A stretch of DNA of 64,000 nucleotides, from contig JACPLC010000006.1 in the NCBI GenBank assembly GCA_016186695.1, forward strand, positions 7,283-71,282, written 5' to 3'. A program made the position numbers and the translations under genes. The first letter of the stretch is position 1. Each line of letters starts with the position of its first letter. Below, one piece after another: positions 2,931-53,435 of this stretch. Under the pieces are notes generated by a model, which was not told the DNA's origin, made no database searches, and saw nothing but the letters and a program-made list of their open reading frames with translations. The stretch is from Candidatus Kaiserbacteria bacterium (GTDB lineage: Bacteria; Patescibacteriota; Minisyncoccia; Phycocordibacterales; UBA2100).

Positions 2931-3833
2931 TTACATCGAGTTCACTGCGGCGCGGGTGACCGGACCGAAGTAGCCTGCGGCCGGAGTGATTCCCTTCGCC
3001 TTCTGGAATTTGATGAGTGCTGCACGGGTCGCTGTGCCGAAGCGGCTCGTTTCATTGCCGGAAGAGCCGGGGCCGCTTGCGGCTACTTGGTAGCCGTGCC
3101 CGTTGAGCCACACTTGGAGAGCTTTCGCGTCAGCGCCCGTCATGCCGAGTTGGAGATTGCGCGTGAAGTTTGCGCTCGGTGCGGGGAACGCTGCGAGAAG
3201 TGCTTTCGTCTCGGGAGCGACCACACCGCCAAGCGATTCGAAGAGTGCGATAAGACTCTTGAGCTGAGCGACGAGTGCGAGGAGCTCTGATGAGGTCGCG
3301 GGGGCAGCCGCTGCTGGCGTCGCTGTAGTAGGTGTCGGCGTTGGCGTTGTTGCAGTGCTCGTCGCTGCAGGAGTCGGGGTTGGTGTTGGAGTGGGGCTGA
3401 CACTTCCGCCCCCTCCTCCGCCGCCTCCACTACCGCCACCGCCGGAGCTGCAGGATGTTGCTGAAGGCGTCACTACTATCGTGGTGGTCGCTGCGGTCGC
3501 CGGCGCAACGAGTTTGAGCAAGTTAAGGCCGCCGCTGCACGAAGTTACGGTGATGAACGAAGCTCCGGCCGAAAGAGAGCTCGAATCGAGCGTTGGCGCT
3601 GTCATCGAGATGCTGGAATTAGGACCCATCAATATCGTGAATGAGGTGCTGTCTATCGTGGTCGAGGCGAGAGTCGCTCCACCCGTTGAGACGCTCACGG
3701 TCACTCCGCTGAGCTGAATGTTGACGTCTGGATCGATCGTGACATCGCTCCCCGTGGTGGCAGCCGAAACCGCGAGTGGAAGCAGCAACGCCGCGACTGA
3801 AACAGAAGCTGAAGCTAAGAAGAATTTCTTCAT
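2931..3833 (-). CDS. secreted protein with C-terminal peptidoglycan-binding domain (PG_binding_1-like) and Thr/Pro/Gly-rich linker
   Basis: Signal peptide MKKFFLASASVSVAALLLPLAVSA. Low-complexity GGGGSGGGGGGGG/PTPTPTP linker. C-terminal ...ALQVWLNGHGYQV...GNETSRFGTATRAALIKFQKAKGITPAAGYFGPVTRAAV, typical of a PG-binding helical bundle. Confidence 0.7.
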   Translation of the reverse strand: MKKFFLASASVSVAALLLPLAVSAATTGSDVTIDPDVNIQLSGVTVSVSTGGATLASTTIDSTSFTILMGPNSSISMTAPTLDSSSLSAGASFITVTSCSGGLNLLKLVAPATAATTTIVVTPSATSCSSGGGGSGGGGGGGGSVSPTPTPTPTPAATSTATTPTPTPTTATPAAAAPATSSELLALVAQLKSLIALFESLGGVVAPETKALLAAFPAPSANFTRNLQLGMTGADAKALQVWLNGHGYQVAASGPGSSGNETSRFGTATRAALIKFQKAKGITPAAGYFGPVTRAAVNSM

Positions 3834-49696: not shown

Positions 49697-50214
49697 GACT
49701 TTTGTTCTAGAACATATATGGGTCTGATGAGAAGCAGGTGGATATTAGCGATCGCGAAAGCGACCACCGCCATCCAGACACTCTCCAGTGGATATCCAAG
49801 GACCACCCCTCCCCAGGCGGCTCCACATGCGGCAGCTCCTACGAGATTAACCCGGATCTTACGCCGCAGAATTTTTTCGTACGAAGTATGTTTGAGGAGA
49901 AAGACATATTTCACTGATGCGACAAGAAAAAGACCGAGTGCGATAAGAAAGAACCTGACCTCATCATTCATGGAAAAAGCGAGCAGAAGATAGAATGCGA
50001 GAAGAACTGTATCTATGACCTTCTGTAAAAGGTCAGCGGGTAGGAGAGACGAGAAAAATCGCACGGAAAAGAATGTGTTGAGGATGAGTAGAGCGTAAAA
50101 AACTGCGAGTGGAATTCCTGTTGGTTCCCACCAGATTTGTTCAAAGTAGAAACTAGCGAGTCCGGCGATCGCAAAAATAATGGTGGCAAGACCAGCTCTA
50201 AGTGTTGAAGACAT
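49693..50214 (-). CDS. polytopic membrane protein (about 5 TM), unknown function
   Basis: Hydrophobic 173-aa ORF. It lies between a GT2 gene and a hydrolase gene, so it looks operonic. Confidence 0.5.
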   Translation of the reverse strand: MSSTLRAGLATIIFAIAGLASFYFEQIWWEPTGIPLAVFYALLILNTFFSVRFFSSLLPADLLQKVIDTVLLAFYLLLAFSMNDEVRFFLIALGLFLVASVKYVFLLKHTSYEKILRRKIRVNLVGAAACGAAWGGVVLGYPLESVWMAVVAFAIANIHLLLIRPIYVLEQKS

Positions 50215-50248
50215 TGCGCAAAATACTGTTTACATTGCTCAAAATACC

Positions 50249-51004
50249 CTAGTGTCGCACGTCTTGATAAGTGTTGTGGAATGATTTCCCGAAAATCAGA
50301 CCCCAGAAATAGTTGATCGTGTAGCGAAACGCCGTGACAATCATGCCCTCTCGCTGTATACGGCGCGCAGACGAGTATACGGGAAGTTTGAATGTAAAGA
50401 TAACTTTCCCAACTTTGACTATTCGCCGGCCAATATCACTGTCTTCTCCATAAAATTCAATACGCCTGTCGTACCCACCGATTTCTTGCAGAGCTCGTCG
50501 TCGTACCACATAGTTTCCCCCTTGAAGAAAGGCGCCCGTGCCAAACAACGCCTTGGTCATTCCCTGAGAAACAAAGACCAGAACATACCAAAACCACACT
50601 AAGAACCTCTTCGTTCGCGATTCGAGATCATAGTGAATGAAAGGTCCGCTTAGCGCGACAAGGCTGGGATCACTCGAAAATGCATCCATCACTTTCTTTA
50701 ACCACCCCGTAGAAAGTCTTGAGTCAGCGTCGATATTCGCGACGAGGTCTCCCGAAGAGGCAAGGAACCCTGCGCTCCTAGCCCACACTAACCCCTTGTG
50801 TGGTTCGTCAATAACTTTTACCTCAGGGTACGAACGAGCAACAGCTGCCGTTTTATCCGTCGAAGCGTTATTAACTACGATGATTTCTATAGGATAGGGG
50901 TTGCTTTTGCCTTCGCGTTTAATGGATTCTATGCACTCGCCGACATAGTCTTGCTCATTATATGCGGGGATCACGAAGCTCAATTTCATATGTGATGTCG
51001 GCAT
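50249..51004 (-). CDS. family-2 glycosyltransferase
   Basis: KLSFVIPAYNEQDYV...IIVVNNASTDKT...NIDADS. Confidence 0.8.
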   Translation of the reverse strand: MPTSHMKLSFVIPAYNEQDYVGECIESIKREGKSNPYPIEIIVVNNASTDKTAAVARSYPEVKVIDEPHKGLVWARSAGFLASSGDLVANIDADSRLSTGWLKKVMDAFSSDPSLVALSGPFIHYDLESRTKRFLVWFWYVLVFVSQGMTKALFGTGAFLQGGNYVVRRRALQEIGGYDRRIEFYGEDSDIGRRIVKVGKVIFTFKLPVYSSARRIQREGMIVTAFRYTINYFWGLIFGKSFHNTYQDVRH

Positions 51005-51135
51005 TAAAGATTATCTAGCAAACCCCTGGACCTTTCGCGAAGATAAGCTTCTGGATCACACTTGCATTATACCGAGTTGGGGCAATCGCCGGAAACCCGA
51101 CACACGCAATCGTGTGAACGGGCAGGTCGAACCCT

Positions 51136-51181
51136 AAACTTGGGCGACTGTCGAAAATTGAACTTCAAACTTGGGTGACCG
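51136..51181. repeat. 15-nt direct repeat of tRNA-His 3' end/flank (aaacttgggCgacTg / aaacttgggTgacCg), 31 nt apart
   Basis: Read directly. The second copy overlaps the last 8 nt of the tRNA-His gene. Resembles an att-site-like partial tRNA duplication. Confidence 0.5.
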
Positions 51182-51246
51182 GCGGGACTTGCACCCGCAA
51201 CCGCCTGGACCACAACCAGGAACTCTACTGTTGAGCTACGGCCACC
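51174..51246 (-). tRNA. tRNA-His (anticodon GTG) with encoded G-1, no encoded CCA
   Basis: Reverse complement is G-GUGGCCG UA GCUC AACAGUA GAGU U CCUGG UUGUGGU CCAGG CGGUU GCGGG UGCAAGU CCCGC CGGUCAC C. Anticodon loop UUGUGGU. Extra 5' G pairs with C73. Confidence 0.85.
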
Positions 51247-51247
51247 A

Positions 51248-51751
51248 TTACGATCGGGGCTTTAGGAGACCGCGATCACGTCCCACATCATAATGGTGAA
51301 CGAGAAAATGGCAATTATGACAGAGCCACGCAAGGTTATCTCCGGAATTATTCAGTCGATTACGATCTTTGTGGTGGACAGCCAAAATTCGCGTGTCAGA
51401 AGTCTTGCATACCTCGCAAACTTTCTCCCGCTTTGTTCGATTGAGCGCTGTAACCGAAGCGGAGCTCGAATGCCCATCCTTCCAACTCTTGTTATTCGGT
51501 CCGAAGAAGACCTGATTTCTCCAAATCGTCTGGCATGATTTATTGCAAAAATATTTCTTGTGCTTCGCTAGCCGCAAGCGTTTAGGGGATCTATAAAGTT
51601 CTTTGCCGCATGTGCCACATGCGACGTATTTGCCGGAGCGAATCGCAGCGTAGTGACAAGCATTCGAACAATACTTGCCGCCCCCTCTTCTGACTAAGAA
51701 AGGCTTTCTTTTAAACTCCTGCCGGCAGACTGTACATATGTAAATAGCCAC
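51248..51751 (-). CDS. HNH endonuclease with N-terminal Cys-rich zinc-finger region
   Basis: C-terminal HNH motif ...VCEVCKTSDTRILAVHHKDRNRLNNSGDNLAWLCHNCHFLVHH. Several CxxC pairs N-terminally. GC is lower than the core. GTG start lies directly after GGAG. Confidence 0.8.
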   Translation of the reverse strand: MAIYICTVCRQEFKRKPFLVRRGGGKYCSNACHYAAIRSGKYVACGTCGKELYRSPKRLRLAKHKKYFCNKSCQTIWRNQVFFGPNNKSWKDGHSSSASVTALNRTKREKVCEVCKTSDTRILAVHHKDRNRLNNSGDNLAWLCHNCHFLVHHYDVGRDRGLLKPRS

Positions 51752-51763
51752 TCCTAGAGCATA

Positions 51764-51800
51764 TCACATGGTCTTCTGAATTTTTCAGAAGACCATGTGA
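51764..51800. promoter_or_regulatory. perfect 37-bp palindrome (17-bp arms, 3-nt spacer) immediately upstream of the HNH gene RBS
   Basis: tcacatggtcttctgaa-ttt-ttcagaagaccatgtga. It ends 9 nt before AGGAG/GTG of the HNH ORF. No U-tract follows on either strand. Confidence 0.55.
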
Positions 51801-51891
51801 ACATCTTGGCAGAAATTTCCGGAACACGCGACGCCGCCCCGTGAGAGAAGCGTACGCTTTCCGCACGGGGCGACGTCAAAAAGCACGAGGT

Positions 51892-52281
51892 CTACATTGT
51901 TGCCGGTTGCGCTCCGCTTGCCATACTGCTTCCTTCCTTCAAGCCGAAGCCGGCCCAAAGAGCCACGGCCGCGATCACAAGGTGCAGCACGTGGTCGGCC
52001 GTGTTGGTCGCGATAAGCCCCAAAACGGTGTCGCCTTGTAGAAAGCCCACCACCGCCACGACGGCGTATACAACGCCAAATACCTGAAAGTACAGGCGGG
52101 CGTAGTTCCCTGCAAGCACTGCACCGAGTGCAAGAATTCCCGAGAGAAGATGGATAATGTTGTGGAGCGGATCCACCTCAAATATCCCGAGGAGGCTGCC
52201 GCCCGGCGTGAGAGCCGGCACGAAACCTAAAGCGCCGACGACAACAAACACGATCCCGAAAACCCACGCGAGTTTCTGAAC
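51892..52281 (-). CDS. small 4-TM membrane protein
   Basis: MVQKLAWVFGIVFVVVGALGFVPA... Four hydrophobic segments. Confidence 0.5.
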   Translation of the reverse strand, partial: VQKLAWVFGIVFVVVGALGFVPALTPGGSLLGIFEVDPLHNIIHLLSGILALGAVLAGNYARLYFQVFGVVYAVVAVVGFLQGDTVLGLIATNTADHVLHLVIAAVALWAGFGLKEGSSMASGAQPATM

Positions 52282-52325
52282 CATACATGGTCTATCTAGT
52301 CTGCCGCTAAATCGACCTTTCACCC

Positions 52326-53435
52326 CTAGCGTACCACGAGCTCTATGGGCACCGGCTCAAGAACGTTGACAACTTCAAATGTAACCCTCCCGATAAGCTG
52401 TCCGAACTCTGTCACGACGTTTACCTGCCACTTTCCTTCGCTCGCCTGGAACTTGATTGAGTAGCCGCGGTAGCCGCCATCACGCCCTCCCACGATAAAG
52501 TAGGGAATTGTCTCCTCTGTTGCCCACTTCCCGGAGCGCCCATCGTAGTACTGCCACTCGTGGGAGATTGTCGTTGAAAGTCCGGTCGGTGCGAAAATTG
52601 CCGTATAGACGTACACGGGTTCGTCCGGTGACCGATGAAAGGTCGTGTTGTATCGGAGATACGCTTCGTACCAGGGTGTCGGCTCCGCGAGAAGCCGATA
52701 CTCGTCATCAATGCGCACCGCTCCGTGATACACGCCGGCGTCCTTGAGAGCAAGCGGGAGTGGCGGAATGGCACCGGTAAAGTAGAGCGCGTTGAAAATG
52801 AGAAAGATCACCGCTACGGAGCGCGCAACACGCGTTCGCTCGGACCTCGCACGCTCAGGTACAAGGCGCGAGAGACCATAGAAAAACGTCACGATGACGA
52901 GAAGGCTTACGAAACCGCTTGCGACAAACACGTATGGTCCTATCTTCCCAAAGACTACGGGCAGAAAGAAGATGAAAAACGAGAAGAGGACTACGAAAAA
53001 CATGCTGAACTGGAAGACAAAGCGCGTGTAGAGGCGTACGAACCGTTCGTTCCCGATGAGAAGCGCGGCGAGAATGAAAATGAAAATCCAGCTGATTTGC
53101 AGGGCAGCACTCCTCGAGTACAAAGAAAGGTAGGCTGTGAACAGCCCACCGAATGCAAATTGCGCAACGACGGGAATGAGCGGCAACACCTTGAGAATCC
53201 ACGGGCGCGAAAGACGCCCTGTTTCGATCAAGTTCATCGCGACGATCGAGGACGCGGCAACCGCCAGATAGAAAAAGAGGACGGCGTTCGTTGTCCAGAG
53301 ATCTACCCGCCGCAAAAGCACAAAATAATCGAAAACAAGAGCCGCGATCAGGGCAAGCGGCGAAATATTGCGCATGTACCAATGCGCCAGCTCTTCTACG
53401 TTTTTGGGGAGTTTCTGCAGGTACTTTCTGACCAT
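52326..53435 (-). CDS. polytopic membrane protein with C-terminal extracytoplasmic beta-domain, unknown function
   Basis: About 6 TM segments in the N-terminal 220 aa. The C-terminal 150 aa is soluble (…WQYYDGRSGKWATEETIPYFIVGG...). Confidence 0.5.
   Translation of the reverse strand: MVRKYLQKLPKNVEELAHWYMRNISPLALIAALVFDYFVLLRRVDLWTTNAVLFFYLAVAASSIVAMNLIETGRLSRPWILKVLPLIPVVAQFAFGGLFTAYLSLYSRSAALQISWIFIFILAALLIGNERFVRLYTRFVFQFSMFFVVLFSFFIFFLPVVFGKIGPYVFVASGFVSLLVIVTFFYGLSRLVPERARSERTRVARSVAVIFLIFNALYFTGAIPPLPLALKDAGVYHGAVRIDDEYRLLAEPTPWYEAYLRYNTTFHRSPDEPVYVYTAIFAPTGLSTTISHEWQYYDGRSGKWATEETIPYFIVGGRDGGYRGYSIKFQASEGKWQVNVVTEFGQLIGRVTFEVVNVLEPVPIELVVR

Follow-up and report, generated by a model that had tools for sequence, protein, structure and literature searches.

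What is a gene for a 167-aa zinc-finger/HNH protein doing between a perfect 37-bp palindrome and the gene for tRNA-His on a contig of Candidatus Kaiserbacteria bacterium (JACPLC010000006.1)? An earlier note on this DNA, a stretch of 64,000 nucleotides that is called the window below, had not recognized the gene, the tRNA, and the palindrome as one unit, whereas our analysis indicated that they form one inserted cassette inside a broken tRNA-His gene. Comparison with about 180 related loci showed an insertion/replacement polymorphism, in which a cassette of HNH gene and tRNA-His occupies a disrupted tRNA-His gene. The explanation that we favor, with moderate confidence, is that positions 51079-51800 of the window are a mobile HNH and tRNA-His cassette that lies inside an earlier tRNA-His gene and has replaced it, that such a cassette would spread by homing while carrying a rescue copy of the tRNA, and that the palindrome at its junction would limit expression of the nuclease.

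On the minus strand the putative cassette reads inverted repeat, leaderless promoter, zinc-finger HNH gene, and complete tRNA-His gene. The open reading frame (ORF) of the HNH gene (51248-51751) starts at a GTG that aligns with the ATG of its homologues and ends at a TAA (51248-51250), so that the order is palindrome, 12 nt, GTG to TAA, one T, the G at tRNA position -1 (G-1), and the tRNA. The complete tRNA-His, with anticodon GTG, was found by ARAGORN at 51173-51245, with G-1 at 51246, and scored 56.6 bits with the Rfam tRNA model. The ORF and the tRNA do abut, as the earlier note had said, but, with both genes on the minus strand, the ORF meets the 5' end of the tRNA with its own 3' end, at the stop codon, and not with its start. 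The lower GC content that had been remarked on was also seen (47.2% in the ORF vs 53.5% in the window), but since a neighbouring glycosyltransferase gene has 47.8%, this difference is unremarkable.

The linkage of the two genes was analyzed at 168 loci including that of the window (L001-L007, 80 GTDB species representatives of the 277 that matched, and 80 metagenome contigs). At 150 of the 168 loci a tRNA-His on the same strand starts -23 to +19 nt from the end of the ORF, and one further tRNA-His lies 156 nt beyond a truncated ORF. The ORF and the tRNA overlap at 66 loci, and in 62 of these the overlap is exactly 15 nt, with the last codons ATG GTG CCT ATA GTT TAG (M V P I V and stop) serving as tRNA positions -3 to 15. 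Most of the loci that were negative by ARAGORN still carry a tRNA-His-like sequence at that position. The pattern is carried by at least 277 species-level Patescibacteria genomes, and the synteny around the cassette is conserved down to 63% identity. A variant order was also observed (L019, L025, L028, L035/L130/L131, L036, and L049), with a full tRNA-His, 87-109 nt containing an inverted repeat and a promoter, and then the HNH gene; the HNH protein of these loci has a different C-terminus, and L035 also has a 5' tRNA fragment within the 87-109 nt.

The linked tRNAs are themselves atypical. In the one tRNA-His of the window, GG is missing from the D-loop (AACAGTA), and position 55 in the T-loop (TGCAAGT) is a G instead of the nearly universal U. 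Odd T-loops (for example TGCAAAT and GGCAGGT) were found in 49 of 120 distinct linked tRNA-His sequences, and 29 of these 49 also had no GG in the D-loop; some linked tRNA-His have the acceptor stem GAGGYAT. The presence of such atypical tRNA-His variants (no G18G19, G55) in these lineages might be explained if the element carries them as its alleles. In nearly every locus the +1 position of tRNA-His is preceded by A-3 T-2 G-1 ('ATG'; 51246-51248 in the window), even where this is non-coding, and the same leader was present in the 5' fragments described below and in two of four genes at empty sites. This ATG may be a lineage-specific leader or a processing feature.

In the HNH protein, two Cys4 (TRASH/FCS-like) zinc fingers at the N-terminus are followed by a zinc-bound HNH domain at the C-terminus. 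In an alignment of 30 homologues (A1; 47-86% identity) the invariant residues were C6, C9, C28, and C32; C45, C48, C69, and C73; C112, C115, C144, and C147; and, in the HNH domain, H126, H127, D129, N134, N139, H148, and H152. A Pfam scan, which the earlier note had proposed for the Cys-rich N-terminus, gave only sub-threshold matches, to TRASH-type zinc fingers and to HNH_3 (PF13392; 19.8 bits vs a cut-off of 24.8). The phage family PHROG_1271, 'HNH endonuclease', matched residues 3-160 (E 1.1e-20), homing-endonuclease models also matched the protein, and the nearest annotated models were homing endonucleases. The HNH residues, PHROG_1271, and the homing-endonuclease models together support the earlier assignment to HNH endonucleases of the homing type. 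A sequence profile search of the PDB gave alignments with IscB and with a group II intron maturase, in both cases to their HNH domains. The AlphaFold model (mean pLDDT 85.8) showed two small zinc-finger modules and an HNH domain; in a structure search the HNH region resembled the HNH domains of McrA and Cap5 with a probability of 0.89 but an E-value of 0.09, and no full-length analogue was returned by that search, only pieces (McrA, Cap5, Gme HNH, and an FCS finger).

The homologues of about 165 aa number more than 512 and are all from Patescibacteria-type metagenomes. Degenerate copies were rare, with two to three truncated among about 130; the degenerate or fused ORFs were those of L153 (2001-2324), L111 (1545-1745), and L080 (2501-3169), of which two are truncated and one reads through the tRNA. 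Larger relatives of 250-520 aa (P0261-P0383) were numerous; these carry 3-11 tandem Cys4 fingers before the HNH domain and resemble PHROG_1271 proteins. A phage origin was rejected, the viral contigs having given only two partial HNH-domain matches, and so were a defence system, for which PADLOC yielded only generic HNH-domain matches, and an RNA-guided, IscB-like reading, for which a weak NCBIfam IscB match was confined to the HNH domain.

The remains of a second tRNA-His gene were found around the cassette. Upstream of the HNH gene promoter, 27 loci with 18 distinct sequences carry a 5' tRNA-His fragment that has the usual ATG and G-1 leader. The last part of this fragment is the anticodon loop, yTGTGGA, at 51-57 nt from the start codon, and the distance from anticodon loop to start codon is constant across unrelated fragments. 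It covers tRNA positions 1-38, except in L046 and L115, in which it extends to position 43 and the 3' strand of the anticodon stem is intact. At 12 or more loci a 3' fragment lies 5-25 nt after the complete tRNA and comprises the T-loop from position 53/54, the 3' T-stem, the 3' acceptor strand, and C73. In L037, L124, and L152, where both fragments are kept, their acceptor strands pair with each other and not with the tRNA between them. The 5' fragments were 63-84% identical to the tRNA of their own locus vs 76-97% identical to tRNA-His of other loci. Since they are closer to the tRNA-His of other loci, the fragments are not decayed local duplicates, and in-situ duplication of the adjacent tRNA was rejected. 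Only positions 44-52 of the old gene are missing at occupied sites; because these positions are missing and there is no ribozyme, the arrangement is not an intron, and a spliceable split or intron-containing tRNA was rejected for the same two reasons.

In the window itself a 3' remnant of an earlier tRNA-His, GTTCAATTTTCGACAGTCGCCC, lies at 51142-51163 on the minus strand and comprises the T-loop, 3' T-stem, 3' acceptor strand, and C73. Among full-length matches to a profile of tRNA-His 3' ends, it was the best non-tRNA match in the window, a match that is weak when taken alone (E=4 window-wide). It is located exactly where the relatives carry their 3' remnants, and in the acceptor strand it agrees with the tRNA-His allele carried by L092, L170, and L177. 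A putative second, older 3' remnant, GGGTTTCCGGCGATTGCCCC, lies at 51079-51098 on the minus strand; a by-eye comparison with L088, L092, and L172 showed a resemblance to the native allele's 3' end (...TTCCCGGCGATCGCCC). Two stacked 3' remnants in the window would suggest serial replacements. The remnant-like stretches within 51079-51163 (minus strand) look as if they came from different alleles, one of the CAGTCGCCC type and one of the GGCGATTGCCCC type, and a weaker T-loop-like stretch, GGGTTCGACC, lies between them. As a separate observation, the otherwise identical contigs of L099 and L100 differ at the 3' end of the tRNA by a duplication of 13 nt, gtcgatcaccccc, which is either assembly or strain variation.

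Empty sites were sought on the contigs of four of the closest homologues of the neighbouring DUF2914 gene, 68-77% identical to the copy in the window. All four (L170, L172, L173, and L175) keep the synteny Cob-adenosyltransferase (CobAT), DUF2914, (DUF4383), tRNA-His, and no trace of the HNH gene was found in them in six frames at E<=10. The DUF2914 of the closest HNH-bearing relatives was 73-75% identical to that of the window, so the flanks of the empty sites are as similar to it as those of the closest occupied ones. At this one conserved locus the HNH gene is polymorphic, being present in L001, L089, L090, and others and absent from the four. The tRNA-His at the empty sites is intact and is a different allele from the HNH-linked one (D-arm GGTGTAACGGTTAACAC), and its 3' end equals the remnants seen at occupied loci: that of L175 is exactly the remnant of L099 and L100, and that of L172 is close to those of L089 and L092.

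Two promoters were recognized in the cassette. An extended -10 element, TGaTATGCT, lies at 51758-51766 on the minus strand and ends 6 nt before the GTG, its TG being inside the right arm of the palindrome; in the closest subclade of the window it is conserved as TGnTA(t/c)(g/a)CT. In the whole family, TTGACA-N16/17-TATAAT was matched at 9 or more of the 12 positions upstream of the ORF in 75 of 130 non-redundant loci, vs 6 of 130 in ORF-internal control windows, and the typical form is TTTACA ... TAAAAT. In 57 of the 75 matching loci the distance from the end of the -10 element to the start codon is exactly 6 nt, which points to a leaderless nuclease mRNA. The AGGAG that had been noted earlier overlaps the G of the GTG start codon, with zero spacing, and is for that reason unusable as a Shine-Dalgarno (ribosome-binding) site.

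The second promoter lies inside the ORF. A sigma-70-like sequence, TTGCCA-16-TATGAT, at 51287-51314 on the minus strand falls within the codons of NCHFLVHHYD (NCH...HYD), the protein motif with the highest conservation, and was the sole promoter-like site in a scan of 50900-52400, with 10 of 12 matches. It is a candidate promoter of the tRNA-His gene, with a predicted leader of about 34 nt. The synonymous codons at this place, compared in 129 genes, are biased to the promoter sequence: AAT was used in 91% vs 72% elsewhere, CAT in 88% vs 62%, and TGC in 60% vs 42%. With a promoter inside the ORF, the tRNA can be expressed independently of the nuclease promoter; deletion of the ORF would remove the tRNA promoter, and since the end of the ORF also overlaps or abuts the tRNA, loss of the nuclease gene by deletion would be costly.

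At the left edge of the cassette the arms TCACATGGTCTTCTGAA and TTCAGAAGACCATGTGA, separated by ttt, form a palindrome of 17+3+17 at 51764-51800. The earlier claim of a perfect 37-bp palindrome was verified, the arms being 100% complementary, and its place just upstream of the nuclease start proved to be on the promoter of the nuclease gene, at a distance to the GTG of 12 nt and not the 9 nt that had been given to AGGAG/GTG. Within the 64-kb window the two arms were the only matches to the half-site with up to 3 mismatches (expected 0.05), and related copies in other genomes were found only at the orthologous position, so that a generic repeat of the REP type, which the earlier note had considered, does not apply. 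In agreement with that note, neither strand has a U-tract 3' of the palindrome; UAUGCUCU comes after the stem, and the scan of 50900-52400 found no rho-independent terminator or terminator-like site.

The closest subclade (protein identity 73-86%) has eight distinct members, and each carries an inverted repeat in this position, of the form CAC-N5-CTTCTG, loop, CAGAAG-N5-GTG, and immediately after it the -10 element. The invariant core, CTTCTG/CAGAAG together with CAC/GTG, was present in 7 of the 8 members, and the 17 perfect pairs are found in the window alone, the repeats of the other members being imperfect. Across the eight members the arms paired in 80.6% of cells vs 30-46% when the register was slid. 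The middles of the arms vary, with 11 double-change cells vs 6.2 +/- 2.0 in shuffles.

A probable origin of the arms was suggested by comparison with tRNA-His. The left arm is co-linear with native tRNA-His positions 13-37 in L091 (17/24, p=0.016) and L177 (16/23, p=0.04), and also in L090. Judged from these alignments, the arm that is 5' on the minus strand is probably a decayed remnant of the native tRNA-His, approximately positions 22-38 (3' strand of the D-stem through the anticodon loop), and the 3' (right) arm is in all appearance an inverted copy of this left arm. In the subclade of the window the anticodon-loop part has mutated from TTGTGGA to TTCTGAA and no longer equals the presumed target. 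In distant lineages the junction consists of the anticodon loop TTGTGGA, about 5 nt, TCCACAA or TCAGAA, about 9 nt, and the -35 element, and in most of about 130 loci the spacing between the TCCACAA/TCAGAA motif and the -35 element is fixed. A conserved motif in the upstream region, ATCCACAA, was rejected as a DnaA box: its partner TTGTGGA is the anticodon loop of the tRNA-His fragment, and TCAGAA variants exist. The subclade of the window is without about 23 nt that are found in the distant lineages, including the -35 element, and owing to this deletion the palindrome now spans -13 to -49 of the extended -10 promoter, filling the spacer and the -35 region of the nuclease gene promoter. The right-arm types TCCACAA and TCAGAA are intermixed within protein clusters; this mixture and the independence of the two arms fit a right arm that travels with the cassette and a left arm that belongs to the invaded gene.

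What the palindrome does was considered in the light of phage T4, in which the operator of I-TevI resembles the homing site and overlaps the promoter of the endonuclease's own gene (PMC2988022). By analogy with I-TevI autorepression, a role as operator is plausible for the palindrome. The earlier proposal of an operator or recognition site is supported in part, in that the palindrome is unique, lies on the nuclease promoter, has a core that is kept in relatives, and has a left arm that in relatives aligns with the anticodon arm of the presumed target; it is not supported by the arms of the family as a whole, which show no co-variation, or by the anticodon-loop part in this subclade, in which the target match has been lost. 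From these sequence comparisons, operator-like binding was ranked slightly above two other roles, an RNA hairpin and a scar without function.

In the first of these, the palindrome would act as an RNA hairpin, a terminator or insulator against read-through from DUF4383 and DUF2914, so that the nuclease would be made only from its own leaderless promoter. We consider this unlikely. The hairpin is very stable (folding z = -7.7 for the region) and is the sole hairpin between the DUF2914 stop codon and the HNH gene in L001, L088, L089, and L091; some changes are compensatory, such as GT/AC in the window vs AC/GT in L091, and T4 homing endonuclease genes use hairpins or terminators in this way (PMC2988022). 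However, it has neither a U-tract nor a terminator-like site, a separate, GC-rich hairpin is already present behind DUF4383 in the window, the middles of the arms are unpaired in L090 and L177, the arms do not co-vary across the family, and the start codon is not covered by the hairpin.

The second, which we likewise hold to be improbable and to about the same degree, is that the palindrome is a functionless repair scar, left by a fold-back inverted duplication, and that its perfection in the window came from recent conversion between the arms. In favor of it are the apparent nature of the arms as an inverted copy of the broken tRNA end, their differing degrees of decay among relatives, and the lack of a family-wide pairing constraint. 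However, 7 of the 8 subclade members kept the repeat with the invariant core though the rest of the 5' fragment was deleted right up to it, and the fixed spacing of TCCACAA or TCAGAA from the -35 element also speaks against it.

Under the favored explanation, homing of a mobile cassette with a rescue copy, the HNH protein would cut intact tRNA-His genes between the anticodon arm and the T-loop, repair of the break would copy the cassette in, and the tRNA-His of the cassette would keep the cell alive. The palindrome would be the left junction, consisting of the broken native end (anticodon arm) and an inverted copy of it that arose, most simply, by fold-back repair. On the promoter, the palindrome would most likely limit expression of the nuclease, either as a binding site of the nuclease or as a hairpin that blocks upstream read-through. 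A stronger form of this proposal is that the element is a natural bacterial cleave-and-rescue drive, which would cut the single essential tRNA-His, carry a cut-resistant copy whose promoter and 5' end are interlocked with the nuclease ORF, making loss of the element impossible unless the tRNA went with it, invade serially so as to leave stacked remnants, and use the palindrome as nuclease operator; we offer this form tentatively, as a possibility that falls short of an even chance.

Several observations weigh against the favored explanation. The target site of the nuclease and the immunity of the cassette tRNA are inferred only, and the cassette tRNA shares the anticodon loop, and usually the T-loop, with the presumed target, although under this explanation it would have to escape cutting. 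The left arm matches the tRNA-His in the window itself weakly (p=0.26), the family-wide arm combinations were complementary in 28 cases vs non-complementary in 36 (Fisher p = 0.18), and the covariation of the arms in the subclade is suggestive only, as 13 of 500 shuffles reached the observed value. Seven loci, in which the tRNA lies 87-109 nt upstream of the ORF and none follows it, are not predicted by a simple model. The empty site L170 was also unpredicted: at 3610-3800 it has a non-native full tRNA-His and, about 20 nt later, a native-type 3' remnant, CCAGGCGATCGCCCC, with no HNH gene. Apparently either the nuclease gene was lost there or the tRNA was replaced alone. In addition, the synteny among close relatives fits long vertical inheritance, the identity of the HNH proteins is only partly decoupled from that of the flanking genes, and a protein so strongly conserved and so rarely degenerate is not what is usually seen in purely selfish homing endonucleases; a domesticated function would fit it as well.

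Such a function would make the HNH protein a vertically inherited factor tied to tRNA-His, for instance in precursor processing or quality control, with the fragments as a decayed tandem duplication and the palindrome as an ordinary regulatory site. The protein is very well conserved and nearly always intact, the end of the ORF lies 1-19 nt from the 5' maturation point of the tRNA or overlaps it, and synteny is kept down to the 63% identity given above. However, at this site relatives that are just as close carry a working tRNA-His without the HNH gene, the fragments are nearer to foreign tRNA-His alleles than to the adjacent one, the remnants equal the allele at the empty sites, and the nearest annotated models are homing endonucleases. 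We regard a domesticated factor as quite unlikely. A degenerate group I intron, with the HNH ORF in the anticodon loop of tRNA-His and the inverted repeat as a relic P1 helix, is a highly improbable reading of the locus. Group I introns, some with HNH genes, are known from this phylum in the anticodon loops of tRNA-Asn and tRNA-Asp (PMC13011429), and the 5' exon end, short loop, and complementary stretch resemble P1 geometry, but Rfam found only tRNAs in window positions 50000-53000 and in five relatives, non-coding sequence is limited to about 50 nt ahead of the ORF, with none behind it, joining of the exons is impossible without native positions 44-52, and a complete second tRNA-His lies inside the supposed intron.

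Outside the cassette, the GC-rich hairpin mentioned above is imperfect, has 24-nt arms, and lies at 51830-51877, directly 3' of the DUF4383 stop codon. On the minus strand it has a T-run at its 5' side rather than at its 3' side. DUF4383 is followed by homologous GC-rich hairpins in L175, L090, and L006. This hairpin is likely the end of the upstream DUF4383 transcription unit and belongs to the context.

No literature linking an HNH gene with tRNA-His in Patescibacteria, also known as the candidate phyla radiation (CPR), was found among open-access papers and bioRxiv, and the pattern, which recurs in hundreds of species of this group, looks undescribed. Homing endonuclease genes normally spare their host by residing in self-splicing introns or inteins or by an intergenic position. 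The element described here appears to use a third solution, in that it destroys an essential tRNA gene and supplies its own copy, interlocked by overlap (<=15 nt) and by an embedded promoter. The cassette shapes the sole tRNA-His locus of tiny Patescibacteria genomes. For annotation, tRNA-His fragments and 'hypothetical' 165-aa genes beside tRNA-His in CPR genomes could be read as one element. If the proposed mechanism is true, the 167-aa protein would also be a compact sequence-specific nuclease with a defined, conserved target.

In synthetic cleave-and-rescue (ClvR) drives, a nuclease directed against an essential gene is tightly linked to a rescuing copy of that gene. The cassette resembles these drives in having a nuclease that would be aimed at an essential gene and a linked rescue copy, and would be their natural counterpart if the mechanism is true. 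It differs in being natural and bacterial and in residing in the cleaved locus itself; the resistance of its rescue copy is presumed. Integrase islands and prophages in tRNA genes also use a tRNA gene as insertion site and leave a partial tRNA duplicate, but the cassette supplies a whole tRNA, both the 5' and the 3' fragments of the old gene remain, and no recombinase was found among the called neighbours of the cassette, which is about 0.7 kb and comprises only the HNH gene and the tRNA.

A report on Patescibacteria in which tRNA-His is not mentioned describes group I introns in tRNA-Asn and tRNA-Asp, inserted at position 35/36, of which four have HNH genes (PMC13011429). The cassette is like them in its phylum, in having an HNH homing gene, and in its insertion site, the anticodon region of a GUN-anticodon tRNA. 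In contrast to them, the cassette has no ribozyme and its exons are non-contiguous, so that function would be restored by a second tRNA gene and not by splicing. With I-TevI the cassette has in common a sequence on the promoter of the nuclease gene that would be derived from the target or resemble it. Its site differs from that of I-TevI in being a palindrome apparently made of a target remnant and its inverted copy, a putative operator, in which the window now has TTCTGAA vs TTGTGGA in the target.

The closest mechanistic relatives of the cassette, by analogy, would be free-standing homing endonucleases such as SegB and MobE, an HNH enzyme, of the T-even phages. SegB is a free-standing homing endonuclease in the tRNA gene cluster of T4, and in the seg and mob genes of T4 the embedded promoters of essential downstream genes favor retention of the endonuclease (PMC2988022). 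As in those phages, a nuclease gene that belongs to neither an intron nor an intein stands beside a conserved gene that it presumably cuts, is present in some relatives and absent from others, and has the promoter of a downstream essential gene embedded in its ORF. SegB is a GIY-YIG enzyme, whereas the cassette protein combines two TRASH/FCS-like zinc fingers with an HNH domain. Unlike the T-even genes, the Patescibacteria cassette is chromosomal, lies inside its target gene and destroys it, and brings a full replacement copy that overlaps the ORF; this linked and interlocked replacement copy of the target gene would be its new feature.

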